DNA from: Synergistales bacterium
GTDB lineage: Bacteria; Synergistota; Synergistia; Synergistales; JAFGMB01
Direction: 5' to 3'
NCBI GenBank assembly: GCA_963666205.1
Contig: OY762654.1
Location: 2,816,001-2,880,000 of the forward strand
DNA length: 64,000 nucleotides
Shown: positions 1 through 8,665 of the stretch, in pieces
Numbering within the stretch: position 1 is the first letter of the stretch
How the letters are laid out: the number at the start of each line of letters is the position of its first letter
The notes under the pieces: model-generated
What the model saw: only the letters and a program-made list of their open reading frames with translations
Told to the model about the DNA's origin: nothing
The model's database searches: none
Made by a program: the position numbers and the translations under genes

Positions 1-1243
1 ATATCCTATCCTTTTTTCAATATCCGTTCCGTCCATGATCTATATACTTTTATCGGGAGTCAGTCCTGCCGTTATCATGGATCAGATGGTAATAGGATTC
101 GAGAAACAGTTTGTCCTACTTGCGGTACCTCTATTCATCCTTGCTGCCAAGATAATGAATGAAAGTCTTATAACAGAGCGCCTTTTTGACTTTGCAAACA
201 GGATGATGGGTTCCCGAAAAGGTGGTTTGGGACACGTCAACGTGCTGGTCTCAATAATCTTTTCAGGAATGACAGGCTCGGCGATCGCAGATGCTTCTGG
301 CCTTGGTTTAATTGAGATCAAGGCGATGAACGATGCTGGATATGATCCTGAATTCAGCTGTGCTGTTACATCTGCAAGTGCGACCATTGGTCCGATCATA
401 CCTCCCAGTATACCCATGGTTATATATTCCATGATCTCAGGGGCCTCTCTGGGCTACCTGTTTATTGGAGGCATAATTCCTGGGCTTTTCCTGGGGGTAT
501 CAATGATGGTTTATATCGCTTATATTTCACATAAACGGAACTATCCATCGGGGGAACCCTTTCATCTCAGATCCCTTGCCAGGTCCTTTTACAAGGCTTT
601 TTTCCCTCTCCTGACCCCTGTTATTCTCCTCTGGGGAATTTATGGCGGAGTTTTTACTCCTACAGAGGCCGCTGCAGTGACAGTCCTTTATGCTCTGATA
701 CTTTCAGTATTCGGTTACCGCATACTGGGATTGAGAAAACTTTTGCATATTTTTAAGGATTCTGCCCTCAGTACCGGTTATGTTTCAGCAATGGTGGCTG
801 GAGCTCTTCTTTTCAGCTACATAGTATCCCGTGAGCAGCTTCCTGCACTTTTAACTAATTTTGTTATGAACTCGGGAATAATAACCAACAAATACACCTT
901 TCTGCTTTTCGTAAATGTTCTTTTACTTCTTCTGGGATGTGTCATGGATCCTATCGTCGGAGAACTTATCGTTATGCCTATTCTTGTCCCCATCGCTATA
1001 TTTTTCGAAGTCGACCTGATCCATCTGGGAGTTGTTTCGGTCCTTAATTCCATGATCGGTCTATCGACGCCACCCTATGGTGAAAATCTGTTCATAGTAA
1101 GCGCCTTATCAAAGGTTCCTTTGGGAGGGATCATAAGGGAAATGTGGCCCTTCCTTGGTGTTCTTATATTTGTGTTGTTAACGTGTACCTATATCCCGGA
1201 TATTGTTCTGCTTCTTCCCAAAATGGCTGGGTATATGCCATAG
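1..1243 (+). CDS. dctM: TRAP transporter large permease (DctM family), 5'-truncated by the window edge
   Basis: DctM motifs LLAVPLFILA, FSGMTGSAIADA, IGPIIPPSIPM, GVFTPTEAAA, IGLSTPP. The frame is open from base 2 to the ATG at 35, so the true start is probably upstream. Confidence 0.92.
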   Translation, partial: YPILFSISVPSMIYILLSGVSPAVIMDQMVIGFEKQFVLLAVPLFILAAKIMNESLITERLFDFANRMMGSRKGGLGHVNVLVSIIFSGMTGSAIADASGLGLIEIKAMNDAGYDPEFSCAVTSASATIGPIIPPSIPMVIYSMISGASLGYLFIGGIIPGLFLGVSMMVYIAYISHKRNYPSGEPFHLRSLARSFYKAFFPLLTPVILLWGIYGGVFTPTEAAAVTVLYALILSVFGYRILGLRKLLHIFKDSALSTGYVSAMVAGALLFSYIVSREQLPALLTNFVMNSGIITNKYTFLLFVNVLLLLLGCVMDPIVGELIVMPILVPIAIFFEVDLIHLGVVSVLNSMIGLSTPPYGENLFIVSALSKVPLGGIIREMWPFLGVLIFVLLTCTYIPDIVLLLPKMAGYMP

Positions 1244-1313
1244 TTCATTATATGTGTTCTGACCATATTCTTATTATTCCAATTACTGTAATAAGCAGGA
1301 GGAAAGAGTATTA

Positions 1314-2051
1314 ATGAAAACAATAGGAGTTATCCCGTCAAGATACGGTTCCACCCGGCTCCCCGGTAAACCATTGAAAGATATCTGTGGAAAATCCATG
1401 GTTCAAAGGGTATATGAAGCCGTTCAGGGTGCTTCAATGATCGATGAGGTAATTGTTGCAACTGATGATGAAAGGATAGTTGAAGAAGTAAGGAGTTTTG
1501 GAGGTAGGGCTGTAATTACCTCCCCGGAACATCCCAACGGTACATCACGGATAGCCGAGGCAGTTGAATCTCTGGATGTGGATCTGGTTATCAATATCCA
1601 GGGTGATGAACCATTCATAAGGGGCGTTATGATAGATGAGCTTCTTGAAGTTATGATAAAGGATCCCGGGATCTCAATGGCGACCCTCTGTTATCAGCTG
1701 ACTGACCCGGCAACCTTTACAAACGAGAATGTCGTAAAGGTTGTTTCAGATATCCATGGTAATGCCCTCTACTTCAGCCGGTCCATGATCCCCTTTCCCA
1801 GAAAGGCAGATTCGCTCAAAGTATATGAACATCTGGGCATATACGGTTACAGGAAGGACTTCCTCGAAAAATACATCGCTCTGGAGGATACTCCCTTATC
1901 AATGACTGAATCTCTGGAACAGCTGAAGGTCCTGGAGCATGGTTACAGAATATTTGTAGTTGAGACAAAACATGAGTATCACGCTTTAAGCATTGATACT
2001 CTGGAAGATCTTGAAGAAGCCAGACGGATAATACAAAGCAGAGGAGTGTAA
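1314..2051 (+). CDS. kdsB: 3-deoxy-manno-octulosonate cytidylyltransferase (CMP-Kdo synthetase)
   Basis: IPSRYGSTRLPGKPL, INIQGDEP, VKVV, ALYFSRSMIP, HLGIYGY, ESLEQLK are KdsB-type motifs; AGGAGG RBS upstream. Confidence 0.93.
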   Translation: MKTIGVIPSRYGSTRLPGKPLKDICGKSMVQRVYEAVQGASMIDEVIVATDDERIVEEVRSFGGRAVITSPEHPNGTSRIAEAVESLDVDLVINIQGDEPFIRGVMIDELLEVMIKDPGISMATLCYQLTDPATFTNENVVKVVSDIHGNALYFSRSMIPFPRKADSLKVYEHLGIYGYRKDFLEKYIALEDTPLSMTESLEQLKVLEHGYRIFVVETKHEYHALSIDTLEDLEEARRIIQSRGV

Positions 2052-2093
2052 CGGTTTTGTAGATTTCTGTTCAATTCACAAGAGTATTGATTT

Positions 2094-2125
2094 CACCCCT
2101 GGAAGGTCTCCAGGGGTGTTTTTTT
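2094..2125 (+). terminator. Intrinsic terminator after kdsB
   Basis: CACCCCTGGA-aggtc-TCCAGGGGTG perfect 10-bp stem followed by T7. Confidence 0.85.
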
Positions 2126-2263
2126 ATTCCATAAAATCCTGAATACTTCTGAAATACATGAAATCCATGGGGTTATCTCCTTAACTGATTCCAAAATAAG
2201 ATGAATTAGTGATAATATATCTTATTAAAGAGCCACAGTATTGAGAATAGGAGGTATAGTCCT

Positions 2264-3157
2264 ATGATCAGGATGCAGGACCTTGTAGTACCTGTTATTA
2301 CTCCATTTGATAAGAATGGTGAAATTGATCCGCTGGGCATTCGGGATCTCTTTGATTTTCTTATCAGAGCTGGAGTTCGGAATTTTTATATTCTGGGAAC
2401 GACTGGGGAAGTCTTTCTGATGGACAAGGAGGAACGGAAAAGAATTACAGAACTTGTTGTAGATCATGTTTCAGATAACGGAAATGTCTATGTTCATGTC
2501 GGCTCTTCTTCAACCAGGGAAGCATGTGAACTTGCAAGGCATGCTGAAAGCCTTGGAATCGCAGGAATTGGTGCTGTTACTCCTTTTTATTTTCATGTTA
2601 GCCAACGGGAAATGGAACAGTATTATCTTGAAATAGCCAGAAGTGTGAGTGAAGATCTTCCTGTCTACCTTTATAACATTCCAGGGTGTTCCACCAATGA
2701 CCTTCTTCCCCGGACAGTTGCAAATCTCGCTGAAATCACAAATATTGTGGGTATAAAGAACAGCATGGCAGATATATTCAGGCTGAGTCAGCTCATCGAT
2801 GAGACCCCGGATGATTTTGATGTTCTTATAGGGGCAGATAACATCCTTTTGTCAGCTATCCTTTATGGAGCAAAGGGAAGTGTTTCCGGGAATGCCAATG
2901 TTTTTCCGGAAATATTCCTGGATTTTTATAAGGCCATGCATGATAGAGACTACGAACGGGCTCACTCTCAACAGATCCTTATCAATCGGATTGCAAACCT
3001 GTTAAAAAATGGTGCGAATCTGGCTTATTTTAAACATGCCCTTTTATGCAGAGGATGTCGGCCTATGTTTACAAGGAAACCCCTGATGGGTCTCGAAGAG
3101 AGTGAAAAAAAAGAACTTCATAAAGAGATAGATGAAATAGTGGCAAGCTATATCTGA
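2264..3157 (+). CDS. DapA/NanA-family class I aldolase (probably not DHDPS)
   Basis: ITPF, GTTGE pyruvate-binding motif, LYNIP Tyr, GIKNS Schiff-base Lys; AGGAGG RBS. Confidence 0.88.
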   Translation: MIRMQDLVVPVITPFDKNGEIDPLGIRDLFDFLIRAGVRNFYILGTTGEVFLMDKEERKRITELVVDHVSDNGNVYVHVGSSSTREACELARHAESLGIAGIGAVTPFYFHVSQREMEQYYLEIARSVSEDLPVYLYNIPGCSTNDLLPRTVANLAEITNIVGIKNSMADIFRLSQLIDETPDDFDVLIGADNILLSAILYGAKGSVSGNANVFPEIFLDFYKAMHDRDYERAHSQQILINRIANLLKNGANLAYFKHALLCRGCRPMFTRKPLMGLEESEKKELHKEIDEIVASYI

Positions 3158-3259
3158 TCCTTTTATGGATCGGAAACCGGTCTTCGATGGAAGAGTTTCC
3201 CATTACCCGGTATTTTACGTAACCATCTTGTAGGACAAGTCTTAAGGAGGGGGTAAAAG

Positions 3260-5056
3260 ATGCCCATAGTGAAAAACAGACTTCAGGGAGCAATGCCCAA
3301 GGTTGGCATACGTCCTGTTATCGATGGCCGCAGAAGGGGTATAAGGGAATCCCTTGAAGATCAGACCATGGACATGGCTCATGCTGCCGGCCGACTTATA
3401 TCGGAGAAACTCAGGCATCCTGATGGGTCTCCTGTGGAATGCATATTTGCTGATACTACCATTGGTGGTGTGGCGGAAGCTGCAAAATGTGCAGAGAAGT
3501 TCGCCAGGGAAGGTGTAGGTGTTTCACTCTCTGTTACTCCATGCTGGTGTTATGGAATGGAGACTATAGATATGGACCCTCTTATTCCAAAGGCTATCTG
3601 GGGTTTTAACGGTACAGAAAGACCTGGAGCAGTTTATCTTTCTGCAGCATTGGCTGCTCATGACCAGGCAGGACTTCCCGCTTTCGGGATATATGGCCGG
3701 GATGTTCAGGATGCCAATGATAAAACTATCCCGGACGATGTTCAGGAAAAGATACTCCAGTTTACTAAAGCAGGTCTGGCTGTTGCAACTATGAGGGGCA
3801 GGTCATATTTATCCATCGGAAGTGTTTCCATGGGAATAGCCGGTTCTCAGGTCAATGCTTCATTCTTCCAGGATTACATGGGGATGAGAACTGAATATGT
3901 GGATATGTCCGAGATCATACGCAGGATAGAGGAAAAGATCTACGATGAAGAAGAATTCATAAAAGCCCTTGAGTGGGTGAGGAACAACTGTCCGGAAGGA
4001 GAGGATCGTAACAGGAATGAAATAAAGCACTCCCGTTTACGCAAAGATGAAGAATGGGAAATGGTAGTAAAAATGACCATCATAGCAAGGGATCTTATGG
4101 TAGGGAACGAAAGGCTTGGATCACTCGGATACGAAGAAGAAGGGGAGGGGCATAATGCCATAGTTGGAGGTTTCCAGGGGCAAAGGCAGTGGACTGACCA
4201 TTTCCCGAACGGAGATTTTACAGAAACCATTCTCAATTCTTCCTTCGACTGGAACGGGATCAGAGAAGCCTTTGTTTTTGCCACAGAAAATGACAGCCTC
4301 AATGGAATTACCATGCTTTTCAACCATCTTCTGAGTGACAGGGCCCAGATCTTTTCCGACATAAGGACCTACTGGAGCCCCGAAGCAGTGAAAAGGGTAA
4401 CGGGTATAGAATTGAAGGGACTTGCCGCTAATGGTTTTCTCCATCTTATAAATTCAGGGTCTACTACGCTGGATGCTACGGGTGAACAGAAGGAGAATGG
4501 AGAATCTGTGATGAAGCCCTTCTGGGAGATAACGAAGGAAGAAACGAAGGCTTGTCTCGAAAGTACAAAATGGTCTCCAGCGAGCCTGGAGTATTTCAGA
4601 GGAGGCGGTTTCTCTTCAACCTTCCGTACAAAAGGGGTCATGCCTGTCACCATGGCCAGGGTAAATCTGATAAAGGGACTTGGACCTGTTATACAGATCG
4701 CTGAAGGCCATACAATGGATCTTCCTCCGGAAGTTCATCGTACCATTGATGACAGGACGGATCCTACCTGGCCGACCACTTGGTTCGTTCCCCGTCTTAC
4801 AGGAAAAGGAGCCTTCACCGATATATATTCCGTAATGAATAACTGGGGTGCCAATCATGGCGCTATCAGTTACGGTCATATAGGTAAGGACCTGATAACT
4901 TTAGCCTCCATGCTCCGTATACCTGTTTCCATGCACAATATACCGGAAGAAAAGATCTTCAGACCAAAAGCCTGGGCCTCCTTCGGTACCTTTGGCCTTG
5001 AAGGTGCGGATTTCAGGGTATGTCAGAGTTTTGGCCCATTATACGGCAGAAGGTAG
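3260..5056 (+). CDS. fucI: L-fucose/D-arabinose isomerase
   Basis: IGIRP-like [57 protein letters not shown]; 598 aa. Confidence 0.96.
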
Positions 5057-5068
5057 AGGCATTTTAAG

Positions 5069-6727
5069 ATGAGTAAATATGCTCTTGGCCTCGATTTCGG
5101 AACATTGAACGGCAGGGTGCTCCTTGTGGATGTTGATACAGGTGAAGAGGTGGGTACATCAGTATATGCCTATAGTTGCGGTGTTATCGATAAATACCTT
5201 CCGGACAGTGAAATAGAACTTGGCCTGGATTGGGCACTTCAGAATCCTGCCGATTATATCGATGTACTGGAACATGCTGTTCCAGATGTTTTGCAAATAT
5301 CAGGTGTCTCACCGGAAGATGTCATAGGTATCGGTGTCGATTTTACTTCTTCTACGATTCTGCCCATTGATGCAGATGGAGTTCCCCTGTGTCTGTACGA
5401 TCAATGGAAAGAAGATCCCCATTCATGGGTCAAACTCTGGAAGCATCACGCAGCAGAACCTTATGCAAACAGGCTCAGAGATATTGCTTACATGCGTAAA
5501 GAGAAATTTATATTCCGTTACGGGGGAAAGGTTTCCTCGGAATGGATGTTGCCCAAAATATGGCAGGTTCTGGAGGAAGCACCTGAAATATACAAGGCAG
5601 CTCATCATTTTATTGAGGCGGGAGACTGGATAGTGCTTCAAATGACGGGCAATGAAAGACGCAGCTCCTGTAATGCCGGTTATAAGGCTATTTGGGACAA
5701 AAGAGAAGGTTATCCTTCTCAGGCCTTTTTTGCCGCCCTCAATCCTGATTTGAAGAATGTAGTAGAGGAAAAACTTTCGACGGATATTTACCCTCCAGGT
5801 TTTAGGGCGGGCGGTCTGACTTCAGATATGGCTCAAAAGACCGGATTGAAACCAGGAACACCTGTCGCGGTGGGGATAATAGATGCCCATGCCGCTGTCC
5901 CGGGTTCTACGGTGACCGGACCTGGCAAGATGGTCCTGATAATGGGAACATCCACATGTCATATGCTTCTGGACTCGAGCCAGAAATTTATCAAAGGGAT
6001 CCCGGGTGTAGTAGAGGATGGGATCCTTCCAGGATACTTTGGTTACGAGGCTGGACAAGCGGCTGTCGGAGATAGCTTTGACTGGTTTGTTTCAAACTTT
6101 ACTCCCGGGTTTTATGAAAGGGAGGCCATGAAAAGGGGAATAACTATTTATGACCTCCTGGAGGAAAAGGCTTCGAGACTGAAACCGGGAGAAAATGGAC
6201 TTCTGGCCCTTGACTGGTGGAATGGCAACAGGTCCATCCTTAATAATGCTGATCTTTCCGGAATGATATTGGGTTTTAACCTTAATACGAAGCCAGAAGA
6301 GATCTTCAGAGCTATGGTAGAGGCAACTGCTTTTGGAACGAGAATGATCATCGATACTATTGTGGAAAATGGGGTTGAAATAGAAGAACTTTATGCCTGT
6401 GGCGGAATGCCCCATAAAGATAGAATGCTTATGCAGATCTATGCGGATGTTACAGGACGTGAGATCAGAGTTGCTGCTTCCAGTCAGGCTTCAGCCCTTG
6501 GAGCAGCAATGTTTGGAGCCCTTGCTGCCGGAAGTGCTGGCGATGGATATGATTCAATAGAAGATGCTGTGGCCGTAATGGCTTCAATAGAGGATAAGAT
6601 ATATGAACCTGTCCCGGAAAATGTCAGTATTTACAATAGATTGTTTGACGAGTTCAGAAAAATTCACGATTATTTCGGCAGGGGAGAAAACCCGGTAATG
6701 GAGTTTCTGAAGTCTGTAAGACTTTAA
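5069..6727 (+). CDS. araB: Ribulokinase (FGGY family, AraB-like)
   Basis: GLDFGT, GVDFTSST, KLWKHHAA, YGGKVSSEW, IDAHA, GTSTCH, EAGQAAVGD, LDWWNGNRS, EATAFG match Bacillus-type AraB. Confidence 0.88.
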   Translation: MSKYALGLDFGTLNGRVLLVDVDTGEEVGTSVYAYSCGVIDKYLPDSEIELGLDWALQNPADYIDVLEHAVPDVLQISGVSPEDVIGIGVDFTSSTILPIDADGVPLCLYDQWKEDPHSWVKLWKHHAAEPYANRLRDIAYMRKEKFIFRYGGKVSSEWMLPKIWQVLEEAPEIYKAAHHFIEAGDWIVLQMTGNERRSSCNAGYKAIWDKREGYPSQAFFAALNPDLKNVVEEKLSTDIYPPGFRAGGLTSDMAQKTGLKPGTPVAVGIIDAHAAVPGSTVTGPGKMVLIMGTSTCHMLLDSSQKFIKGIPGVVEDGILPGYFGYEAGQAAVGDSFDWFVSNFTPGFYEREAMKRGITIYDLLEEKASRLKPGENGLLALDWWNGNRSILNNADLSGMILGFNLNTKPEEIFRAMVEATAFGTRMIIDTIVENGVEIEELYACGGMPHKDRMLMQIYADVTGREIRVAASSQASALGAAMFGALAAGSAGDGYDSIEDAVAVMASIEDKIYEPVPENVSIYNRLFDEFRKIHDYFGRGENPVMEFLKSVRL

Positions 6728-6985: not shown

Positions 6986-8665
6986 ATGGAAGAACGAATA
7001 CAGAAGGGGAGCAATTTTATCGAACAGATCATTCTTGACGATCTTGAAGCGGGTAGGGTCAGTAAAATAATCACCCGTTTTCCGCCTGAACCCAATGGTT
7101 ATCTCCATATAGGCCATGCCAAATCCATTTGTCTGAATTTCGGTATTGCAGAGCAGTTTAAAGGGGAATGTAATCTTCGTTTTGATGATACCAATCCATC
7201 CAAAGAAGAAACAGAGTATGTCGAATCCATCAAAGAAGATGTAAGGTGGCTTGGTTTCAAATGGGCGAACCTCCGTTTTGCCTCTGATTACTTTGACCAG
7301 TTTTATGGATGGGCCATTGAACTTATAGATTCTGGTAAGGCCTATGTGGACCACCAGTCGGCAGAGGAGATCAGGCAGACCAGGGGCACGTTAACGGAAC
7401 CAGGCATGGAATCTCCCTATCGAAACAGGTTTCCTGAAGAAAACCTGGAACTCTTTGAGAAAATGAAAAACGGAGAATTCGAAGAAGGGGAATGTGTTCT
7501 CAGGGCGAAGATAGATATGGCTCACACAAATCTTAACATGCGTGATCCAATACTTTACAGGATCCTTAAACAATCTCACCATAATACAGGTGACAAATGG
7601 TGTATCTATCCCATGTATGATTTTGCCCACGGTTTTGAAGATGCCATCGAAGGTGTATCCCATTCCATTTGTACTCTTGAGTTTGAGGCTCACCGACCAC
7701 TTTATGACTGGTTCCTTGACAATGTGAGTGTTCCTAGCCGTCCCCATCAGTATGAATTTGCCAGATTAAACCTTACATATACCCTGATGAGCAAGAGGAA
7801 GCTTCTTGAGCTTGTTACCCAGAGATATGTTTCGGGCTGGGATGATCCCCGCATGCCAACCATAAGTGGTGTAAGAAGGAGAGGTTACTCACCATCGGCA
7901 ATAAGACGTTTCTGTAGGGATATAGGTGTATCGAAGGCCAATAGTCTTGTGGATATTGAGTTCCTTCAGTATTGCATAAGAGAGGAATTAAATCGTACTA
8001 CTGACCGTGTAATGGCTGTTTTAAATCCTCTGAAAGTTGTAATAGAGAATTATCCGGAGGGACAGACTGAATACCTTGATGCACTCAATAATCCGGAAGC
8101 TGAAGAGCCGACCTACAGAAAGGTTCCTTTCACCAGGACCATATATATTGAAAAAGATGACTTTATGGAAGAGCCTCCCAGAAAATTCTTCCGACTTGCT
8201 CCAGGAAGGGAAGTCCGGCTGAAACATGCATATTTCATTACCTGCAGGGAAGTTATCAAGGATGAGAATGGCGGAATAGTCGAGCTCAGGTGTGTCTACG
8301 ACCCTGAAACAAAGGGCGGGGATGCTCCCGACGGAAGAAAGGTTAAGGGAACCCTTCACTGGGTTTCTGCTGAACATTCTCTTAAGGCGGAAGTTAGACT
8401 TTATGATCACCTTTTTACGATCAGCAATATGGATGAGATGGAAGAGGGCAAGGATTATAAAGATTATCTTAACCCGGATTCACTTAAAATCCTGACCGAA
8501 TGTTTCGTTGAACCTTCTCTTGAGAATTCTCAGGTTATGGATAGATTCCAGTTCCTTCGCCATGGCTATTTCTGTGTTGATTCCGACAGCAGACCTGGAA
8601 AGCTGGTATTCAACAGAACCGTTTCTCTGAAGGATACCTGGGCCAAGATGCAGCAAAAGGGTTAA
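6986..8665 (+). CDS. glnS: Glutamine--tRNA ligase
   Basis: [59 protein letters not shown]. Confidence 0.97.

Follow-up and report, generated by a model that had tools for sequence, protein, structure and literature searches.

Why do genes for a tripartite ATP-independent periplasmic (TRAP) transporter, a CMP-Kdo synthetase (KdsB), an aldolase, an L-fucose/D-arabinose isomerase (FucI) and an AraB-type ribulokinase lie together in the genome of a Synergistales bacterium, and which substrate could join them? The stretch in question, referred to here as the window, comprises 64,000 nucleotides (G000:C1:2816001-2880000; GenBank contig OY762654.1) of a genome that consists of a single contig (G000:C1) of 2.95 Mb with 44.5% G+C. 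Considering that an aldolase 93% identical to that of the window is found in a record named Acetomicrobium (Synergistota), the host was judged to belong to this genus. Taking sequence, gene context and comparative data together, we propose with moderate confidence that dctP-dctQ-dctM-kdsB and aldolase-fucI-araB constitute a system for the uptake and use of free Kdo (3-deoxy-D-manno-octulosonate), the sugar acid by which lipopolysaccharide is anchored.

Gene calls were based on an open reading frame (ORF) listing and on profile scans (Pfam, and NCBIfam/TIGR with equivalog cut-offs). A preliminary description of the window had reported five co-oriented genes at positions 1-6727, and all five were recovered there on the + strand by ORF listing and family scans. 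The first, at 2..1243, is the 3' part of dctM for the TRAP large permease (PF06808, E 8e-102; TIGR00786, 394 bits versus a cut-off of 268); the full gene spans G000:C1:2815951-2817243, starting 50 bases ahead of the window, and scores E 1e-103 and 397 bits versus 268 against the same two families. It is followed by kdsB for the CMP-Kdo synthetase (3-deoxy-manno-octulosonate cytidylyltransferase) at 1314..2051 (TIGR00466, 220 bits versus 155; NF003952, 304 versus 193), by the gene for a class I (Schiff-base) aldolase of the DHDPS/NAL superfamily, a candidate Kdo aldolase, at 2264..3157 (PF00701, E 4e-70), and by fucI at 3260..5056 (NF008220, 1074 bits versus 775; TIGR01089, 1031 versus 850), whose product matches all three FucI domains (PF07881, PF07882 and PF02952). 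The gene for the AraB-type FGGY ribulokinase occupies 5069..6727 (NF003154, 724 bits versus 428; TIGR01234, 708 versus 583), starting 12 bases past the fucI stop codon, and the next gene is glnS, at 6986. Upstream of the window, dctP (G000:C1:2814259-2815287; PF03480, E 6e-65; TIGR00787, 198 bits versus 175) and dctQ (G000:C1:2815424-2815957; PF04290, E 9e-24) complete the transporter, so that dctP, dctQ and dctM are three consecutive genes, each matching its own family. The preliminary description had pointed upstream to dctP, dctQ, a regulator and a glycosidase; the two transporter genes are indeed present, while no regulator or glycosidase is adjacent.

All steps of the proposed route are deduced from sequence and gene context. 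The TRAP transporter would import Kdo, the aldolase would split it into pyruvate and D-arabinose, FucI would isomerize D-arabinose to D-ribulose, and the AraB-type kinase would produce D-ribulose 5-phosphate, which could enter the pentose-phosphate pathway; from Kdo of either origin, uptake or synthesis by KdsA, KdsB would form CMP-Kdo destined for lipopolysaccharide (LPS). FucI is known to isomerize D-arabinose, and AraB of Escherichia coli phosphorylates D-ribulose. Since the cluster contains no dehydratase or dehydrogenase, the imported acid must itself be the substrate of the aldolase. According to a 2023 paper, aldol cleavage of Kdo gives pyruvate and D-arabinose (PMC10619137). The comparative evidence given below supports the suggestion, made in the preliminary description, of one route from Kdo to pyruvate and D-arabinose and on to D-ribulose and D-ribulose 5-phosphate, and none of the computational checks able to overturn this suggestion did so. 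No match to araA (PF02610, AraA_N) was found in the genome, which is 100% complete, and the AraB-type kinase is therefore unlikely to be part of an L-arabinose pathway; a role in L-arabinose catabolism, with membership in an araBAD operon, was rejected on this ground. Neither a second fucI (E 1e-20) nor a second araB occurs in the genome, and its only class II aldolase, with FucA as best match, is encoded 2.2 Mb away.

The aldolase belongs to the DHDPS/NAL class I group by its PF00701 domain and its invariant Lys165 and Tyr137; these two residues and Thr46/Thr47 are conserved in 22 of 22 aligned sequences, and the columns of Lys165 and Tyr137 are presumably those of the catalytic residues of NanA. 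Its scores are below the cut-offs of all named NCBIfam equivalogs, including DapA (TIGR00674, 181 bits versus 206) and NanA (NF003164, 178 bits versus 281; TIGR00683, 139 versus 382), and both of these identities were ruled out. DapA carries an Arg five residues after its catalytic Tyr; the position five residues past Tyr137 is occupied by Cys142 in the window aldolase. In the aldolase tree the enzyme sits in a starred clade of nine rows, eight of which are linked to kdsB. We know of no reference sequence for Kdo aldolase (EC 4.1.2.23), a family defined by activity, and the Kdo aldolase role of this enzyme is a candidate assignment made from genomic context only.

To what extent, then, does the gene grouping recur elsewhere? 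An aldolase match at E 1e-60 or better was obtained in only 2 of 61 genomes, the window genome and its single congener (G001), and in none of the 59 other Synergistales. A protein search listed ∼90 aldolase relatives at 62 to 92% identity; few carried a source name, and those that did were mostly labeled Atribacterota. Moreover, a scan of one genome per species yielded 80 loci with aldolase relatives (the loci compared bear L-numbers), which were searched with seven proteins of the locus. Co-occurrence of kdsB with the aldolase-fucI-kinase trio in other genomes, on which the preliminary description had made its proposal depend, was confirmed: kdsB adjoins the aldolase gene in all seven loci with at least 61% aldolase identity and is present in none of the remaining 73. 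These seven comprise one Acetomicrobium locus (L011), five from Atribacterota (L012, L013, L015, L016 and L017) and a 4.5-kb contig binned as Verrucomicrobia (L014). Six of them carry dctPQM, L014 beginning inside kdsB, and fucI is present in five, L013 and L016 being on contigs that end ahead of it; araB is found in L011 and L015, the latter holding dctPQM, kdsB, aldolase, fucI and araB together. In Atribacterota the gene order is LacI-dctP-dctQ-dctM-UNK-kdsB-DUF386-aldolase-(URO-D-like, FucU)-fucI-araB, where UNK denotes a conserved protein of ∼400 amino acids (aa) without a Pfam family. The DUF386 protein belongs to the YhcH/YjgK/YiaL family (127 bits versus 45.5), and among named NCBIfam models it is matched best by N-acetylneuraminate anomerase, with 102 bits, short of the cut-off of 160. 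A URO-D-like gene follows the aldolase gene in L012 and L016, with a FucU/RbsD mutarotase gene coming next in L012; homologues of DUF386, FucU and the URO-D-like protein were not detected in the window genome at E 1e-5.

The catabolic part of the block was also encountered in more distant company. Five Bacillota loci (L038, L048, L066, L068 and L071) combine an aldolase 38 to 43% identical to that of the window with fucI and contain no kdsB; TRAP genes are present in four of them (all but L048) and araB in three (L048, L066 and L071). Their gene orders are aldolase-dctPQM-LacI-fucI in Halanaerobium (L038), fucI-araB-aldolase in L048, LacI-aldolase-dctPQM-...-fucI(-araB) in Bacillaceae (L066 and L068), and aldolase-dctPQM-fucI-araB-second DHDPS-DUF386 in Clostridium (L071). 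Linkage to fucI required seven changes on the aldolase tree for 11 positive rows, compared with 10 to 11 in the 10 shuffles listed, and the fucI-linked aldolases of Bacillota occupy four positions apart from one another within the wider family. Considering these scattered loci with their differing gene orders, the sequence acid importer, aldolase, FucI and ketopentose kinase appears to have been assembled more than once. The comparison indicates that the grouping is more than chance, since the block recurs in L012-L017 and aldolase-TRAP-fucI(-araB) in the five Bacillota loci, and that the predicted catabolic branch does not need kdsB. Among the loci compared, a URO-D/MtaA-like gene stands directly after the aldolase gene not only in the two Atribacterota loci (L012:11057-12163, 368 aa; L016:11077-12189, 370 aa) but also in a Halanaerobiales locus (L021:10964-12055, 363 aa).

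What would a CMP-Kdo synthetase do beside a catabolic branch? The Atribacterota versions are informative here. In the five metagenome-assembled genomes (MAGs) that hold L012, L013, L015, L016 and L017, for which completeness is not stated, exactly one kdsB exceeded the cut-off in every case, namely the cluster copy (coordinates checked for L012). No kdsA exceeded the cut-off in any of the five; the best scores, 122 to 143 bits versus 314, came from frames of 342 to 358 aa that we take to be DAHP-synthase paralogues. Likewise, neither the WaaA N-domain nor LpxC was detected in any of them, nor was a KpsC/KpsS-type Kdo transferase (PF05159), an absence that, with completeness unstated, does not prove the genes to be missing. 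Because kdsA, waaA and lpxC were not found, the cluster kdsB of these Atribacterota would be fed only by imported Kdo. A published account likewise describes Atribacterota as having no genes to make and attach Kdo, and it reports lpxABCD in Caldatribacterium, unlike in the five MAGs studied here (PMC13408713).

In the window genome the situation is different, since kdsA, kdsD and waaA are present, which suggests that the organism makes Kdo and LPS. These three genes lie together at 2549-2552 kb, followed by UNK up to 2553 kb, with no kdsB there; the cluster kdsB is the single match over the cut-off in the whole genome. Identity of its product as a CMP-Kdo synthetase is indicated by scores above the equivalog cut-offs. 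Moreover, KdsB entries take all of the first 13 places among its solved relatives, the best being 1gq9 (E 7e-59; none of the other KdsB entries listed scores better than E 3e-55), presumably the capsule-specific CMP-Kdo synthetase of E. coli. The preliminary description had KdsB diverting imported Kdo to CMP-Kdo; the enzyme is there, yet as the sole copy its part in such diversion is inseparable from de novo LPS synthesis.

The history of this kdsB could be traced by comparison with other Synergistales, where 11 of 14 loci have kdsA and kdsD no more than ∼5 kb from kdsB (7 of these 11 also showing waaA), the usual order being kdsA-kdsD-waaA-(UNK)-kdsB. KdsB of other Synergistales is 39 to 58% identical to that of the window, compared with 65 to 72% for the Atribacterota cluster copies. 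A maximum-likelihood tree built from 38 KdsB sequences placed an Acetomicrobium clade (five rows) as sister to an Atribacterota clade (eight rows) with support of 100/99, both apart from the kdsA-linked Synergistales copies. For UNK, the Acetomicrobium protein is 78% identical to the copy from the same family and 65 to 67% identical to the Atribacterota copies. As the identities of UNK and KdsB point in opposite ways, UNK appears native and kdsB does not. These comparisons indicate that Acetomicrobium and Atribacterota have the block in common by horizontal transfer, originally in one direction or the other, each clade being monophyletic with respect to its sister. The simplest history is probably that arrival of the cluster brought its kdsB along, after which the native kdsB was lost; in Acetomicrobium, the cluster copy would probably have taken the place of the gene found elsewhere in Synergistales after kdsA-kdsD-waaA.

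Which acid the transporter takes up is the point at which the Kdo proposal meets its most serious competitor. A paper on TRAP binding proteins states that these proteins need a carboxylate ligand and that a conserved Arg pairs with the ligand carboxylate (PMC4646407). DctP of the window genome has this residue, as judged from alignment: Arg179 aligns with the LRVP Arg of SiaP and Asn219 with the DGQ-E-N-P Asn, and both are invariant in 10 of 10 aligned homologues. Its nearest solved relative by sequence is PDB 4pf6 (Roseobacter denitrificans RD1_0742, EFI-510239; E 3e-49, 171 bits), which was also the best solved relative by Foldseek (E 1.5e-22), followed by the SiaP sialic-acid binders (E 2e-42, 149 bits), which made up matches 2 to 7 in the search of solved structures; Kdo is a candidate ligand of DctP. 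An architecture of the same kind could instead serve another ulosonic or 2-keto-3-deoxy acid, one that leaves an aldose of D-arabinose, L-fucose or L-galactose configuration, with KdsB acting on an analogue or being a passenger. We regard this as unlikely, though worth serious attention, considering that DctP is nearly as close to the sialic-acid binders as to 4pf6, that the aldolase fits no characterized equivalog, that the fucI-linked aldolases (38 to 43% identical) are scattered in a broad family with most members in other contexts, and that L066 also has genes for a 2-hydroxyacid dehydrogenase and a PfkB kinase, hinting at different chemistry there. Set against this, KdsB, whose family assignment points to Kdo as its specific substrate, exceeds the CMP-Kdo synthetase equivalog cut-off and is linked in seven of seven close loci, and no common natural ulosonic acid other than Kdo is known to leave a FucI substrate on aldol cleavage. 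Aldol cleavage of N-acetylneuraminate (Neu5Ac) gives N-acetylmannosamine, and that of 2-keto-3-deoxynononate (KDN) gives mannose.

A second question is whether the genes on either side of kdsB belong together at all. The gap between kdsB and the aldolase gene measures 212 bases and contains, at 2094..2118 on the + strand, a consensus match to a terminator, a hairpin whose 10-pair stem includes 7 G-C pairs and precedes seven T's; it ranked first of 14 terminator-like sites in the region, compared with 6.9 ± 2.7 in shuffled sequences. Because this terminator-like hairpin follows kdsB, dctPQM-kdsB and aldolase-fucI-araB could be transcribed separately, and the sequence suggests two transcription units. 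Promoter scans were not above chance (17 sites versus 14.3 ± 4.4, and 19 versus 12.4 ± 3.3). RNA-library contigs from two studies, which cannot prove single transcripts and may include DNA carry-over, are compatible with the two units dctPQM-kdsB and aldolase-fucI-araB. Short and nearly identical pieces (X1 and X2) fall on all five genes, and one piece spans the aldolase-fucI junction (3029-3386). A 2280-nt contig from a 96%-alike strain covers dctM-kdsB (1-2037) and ends a few bases from the kdsB stop codon, and a second contig spans the dctM-kdsB junction (1-1534). In runs X3 and X4, dctM-kdsB and glnS are covered and most of aldolase-fucI-araB has no contig, although holes of this kind are uninformative on expression. 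A further hairpin, of 17 pairs, lies directly 3' of dctP and ahead of dctQ (L002:15319-15355; G000:C1:2815319-2815355). A hairpin after the gene for the binding protein is known from operons in which that protein is made in excess.

One could accordingly view the adjacency as fortuitous, with dctPQM-kdsB holding a housekeeping kdsB and aldolase-fucI-araB forming a separate operon for D-arabinose, L-fucose or a keto-deoxy acid. This explanation has in its favor that kdsB is the only copy in the genome, that the terminator-like hairpin interrupts the gap, and that no regulator ties the genes together. We nevertheless consider it quite improbable, since the same neighbors occur in Atribacterota without kdsA, waaA and lpxC, where a housekeeping kdsB would be senseless. 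In addition, a TRAP system needs a carboxylate and the aldolase is the only enzyme present that would turn an acid into a FucI substrate, and the association of aldolase, TRAP and fucI recurs in Bacillota. Least credible, with a very low probability, is a reverse flow in which FucI would turn D-ribulose into D-arabinose, the aldolase would join it to pyruvate, and KdsB would activate the resulting Kdo, an unphosphorylated CMP-Kdo route replacing KdsD/KdsA/KdsC in Atribacterota: the reversibility of class I aldolases and the presence of kdsB with no kdsA over the cut-off in the Atribacterota cluster genomes would allow for it, but an ATP-dependent ribulokinase would draw D-ribulose off, the TRAP importer, LacI regulator and homologue of a ring-opening anomerase fit catabolism, the Bacillota versions have no kdsB, and neither WaaA nor KpsC/KpsS-type transferases were found in the five Atribacterota MAGs to use the product.

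Several observations nonetheless weigh against uptake and use of Kdo as the function of the cluster. As regards the ligand, DctP is ∼30 to 33% identical to 4pf6 and 28 to 30% to SiaP; a fold search with the DctP model tied its top rows (Z 28.5 versus 27.9 to 27.4, the top 20 lying within ∼1.3 Z units), and this search does not separate ligands, the predicted local distance difference test (pLDDT) of the model being <50 over residues 201-240. Kdo is reportedly the ligand in 4pf6. The aldolase is equidistant from the DHDPS, YagE and NAL structures. With respect to the locus itself, the hairpin splits kdsB from the aldolase gene, and the position of kdsB here could be historical; moreover, kdsB is the sole genome copy and hence also a housekeeping enzyme, and the cluster in the window genome was found to have no regulator, DUF386 gene or Kdo-releasing hydrolase gene. 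The comparative evidence is affected as well, since the Acetomicrobium and Atribacterota blocks are shared by transfer and thus count as one event rather than two, and the Atribacterota genomes are MAGs without stated completeness. L012 has no araB within 10 kb of the aldolase gene, and L017 has only an FGGY kinase 28% identical to AraB. This kinase (L017:1207-2805, 532 aa) is encoded upstream of the LacI regulator, with no araB-type kinase after fucI, and is possibly a non-orthologous ketopentose kinase.

How would a Kdo system of this kind relate to those already described? It resembles sialic-acid scavenging as known from Haemophilus influenzae (SiaPQM, NanA, NanQ/YhcH and CMP-Neu5Ac synthetase) in having a DctP from the same branch as SiaP, a class I aldolase related to NanA at superfamily level, a member of the YhcH family (in the Atribacterota versions), and a cytidylyltransferase that would split the imported sugar between catabolism and surface glycans. 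It differs in using KdsB rather than NeuA/SiaB and FucI with a ribulokinase rather than NanK/NanE/NagA/NagB, in that its aldolase scores below the NanA cut-offs, and in that the gene for the activating enzyme belongs to the cluster and has no second copy in the cell. In E. coli, D-arabinose is catabolized by FucI followed by a D-ribulokinase (E. coli B) or by FucK/FucA (K-12). The proposed route likewise employs FucI as D-arabinose isomerase before a ketopentose kinase, although this kinase is an AraB-type equivalog and not FucK, and D-arabinose would arise inside the cell from Kdo. In the canonical Kdo pathway (KdsD-KdsA-KdsC-KdsB-WaaA), KdsB uses free Kdo, and salvage of Kdo through NanT in E. 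coli was reportedly described by Nilsson in 2018. Imported Kdo could reach LPS in the same manner here, but kdsB is detached from kdsA-kdsD-waaA and joined to what appears to be a dedicated importer of the high-affinity type and a catabolic branch.

The reaction proposed for the candidate aldolase is that of Kdo aldolase (EC 4.1.2.23; Kdo <-> pyruvate + D-arabinose), which Ghalambor and Heath are said to have reported in 1966 and whose EC entry covers an activity to which no gene is attached. The full-text literature searched, which is thin on subscription journals, yielded no description of genes for Kdo catabolism. The enzyme appears in a table of a 2007 survey of orphan enzymes (PMC1940265), and the 2023 paper mentioned above gives no Kdo aldolase as annotated in E. 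coli BW25113 (PMC10619137). The locus therefore offers four clonable candidates (binding protein, aldolase, isomerase and kinase) and a simple coupled assay for an activity that has no gene. If the proposal is true, it would assign genes to the splitting of Kdo, an enzyme activity that has lacked them since 1966, account for the retention of kdsB in organisms without Kdo synthesis, document a case in which an essential LPS gene gave way to one gained horizontally, and make available a binding protein and an aldolase specific for Kdo, to be used in sensing or in producing Kdo analogues chemo-enzymatically. Almost all bacteria with LPS produce Kdo, as do plants, which have it in rhamnogalacturonan II, and the locus most likely represents, as far as the genomic data go, a plausible means for an anaerobe to import Kdo for burning or reuse.

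The protein UNK is of interest in this respect. Its gene adjoins kdsB in all five Atribacterota loci covering the region and in 6 of 14 Synergistales loci, and mean column identity was 72% over 11 sequences. A language-model look-up placed UNK in a cluster of 3,704 proteins automatically named 'putative deoxyhypusine synthase' (score 0.98). The AlphaFold model (pLDDT 77; predicted template modeling score, pTM, 0.82) matched the C-terminal domain of AgrE (Z 17.5), an LOR/SDH protein (Z 16.1) and deoxyhypusine synthases (Z 14.9 to 16.2), and matched sirtuins more weakly (Z about 10 to 11); UNK is thus predicted by modeling to have an NAD-binding fold that is deoxyhypusine-synthase-like. As a tentative extension that may hold but to which we give rather low credence, Kdo might be traded both as an envelope building block and as a nutrient: Atribacterota, unable to make Kdo or to attach it by WaaA, would import it, activate it by KdsB, install it in an envelope glycoconjugate with the NAD-fold UNK and burn the surplus by means of what would be the first Kdo aldolase with an assigned gene, and the LPS core of Acetomicrobium would depend on the kdsB of a scavenging cluster. 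In the window genome the UNK gene located after waaA (G000:C1:2552241-2553463; L118 8242-9464) shows a frameshift near codon 55 in this assembly, so that either the gene is a true pseudogene or the assembly is wrong by one base; UNK is intact, with 407 aa, in the congener G001.

Beyond the cluster, the next gene upstream of dctP is a divergent ORF of 91 aa, glutaredoxin-like by eye from a Cys-Pro-x-Cys motif alone, and an Rfam scan of the 1.5-kb gap upstream of dctP gave no match. Farther upstream, two more complete TRAP systems are arranged in tandem (L002:2773-12714; G000:C1:2802773-2812714), which brings the number of TRAP systems to three within 15 kb, counting the Kdo-type one. The far end of this tandem is marked by a GntR/FCD regulator gene and a serine recombinase gene (L002:1743-2297, minus strand). 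A direct repeat whose copies are 100% identical over at least 300 nt was also noted (L002:6730-7029 and L002:9156-9455; G000:C1:2806730-2809455), with 2426 nt from start to start. Each copy spans the start of a gene for an HbpS-like protein of 154 aa, and the pair flanks an SDR epimerase-like gene and a nitrilase/deaminated-glutathione-amidase-like gene.

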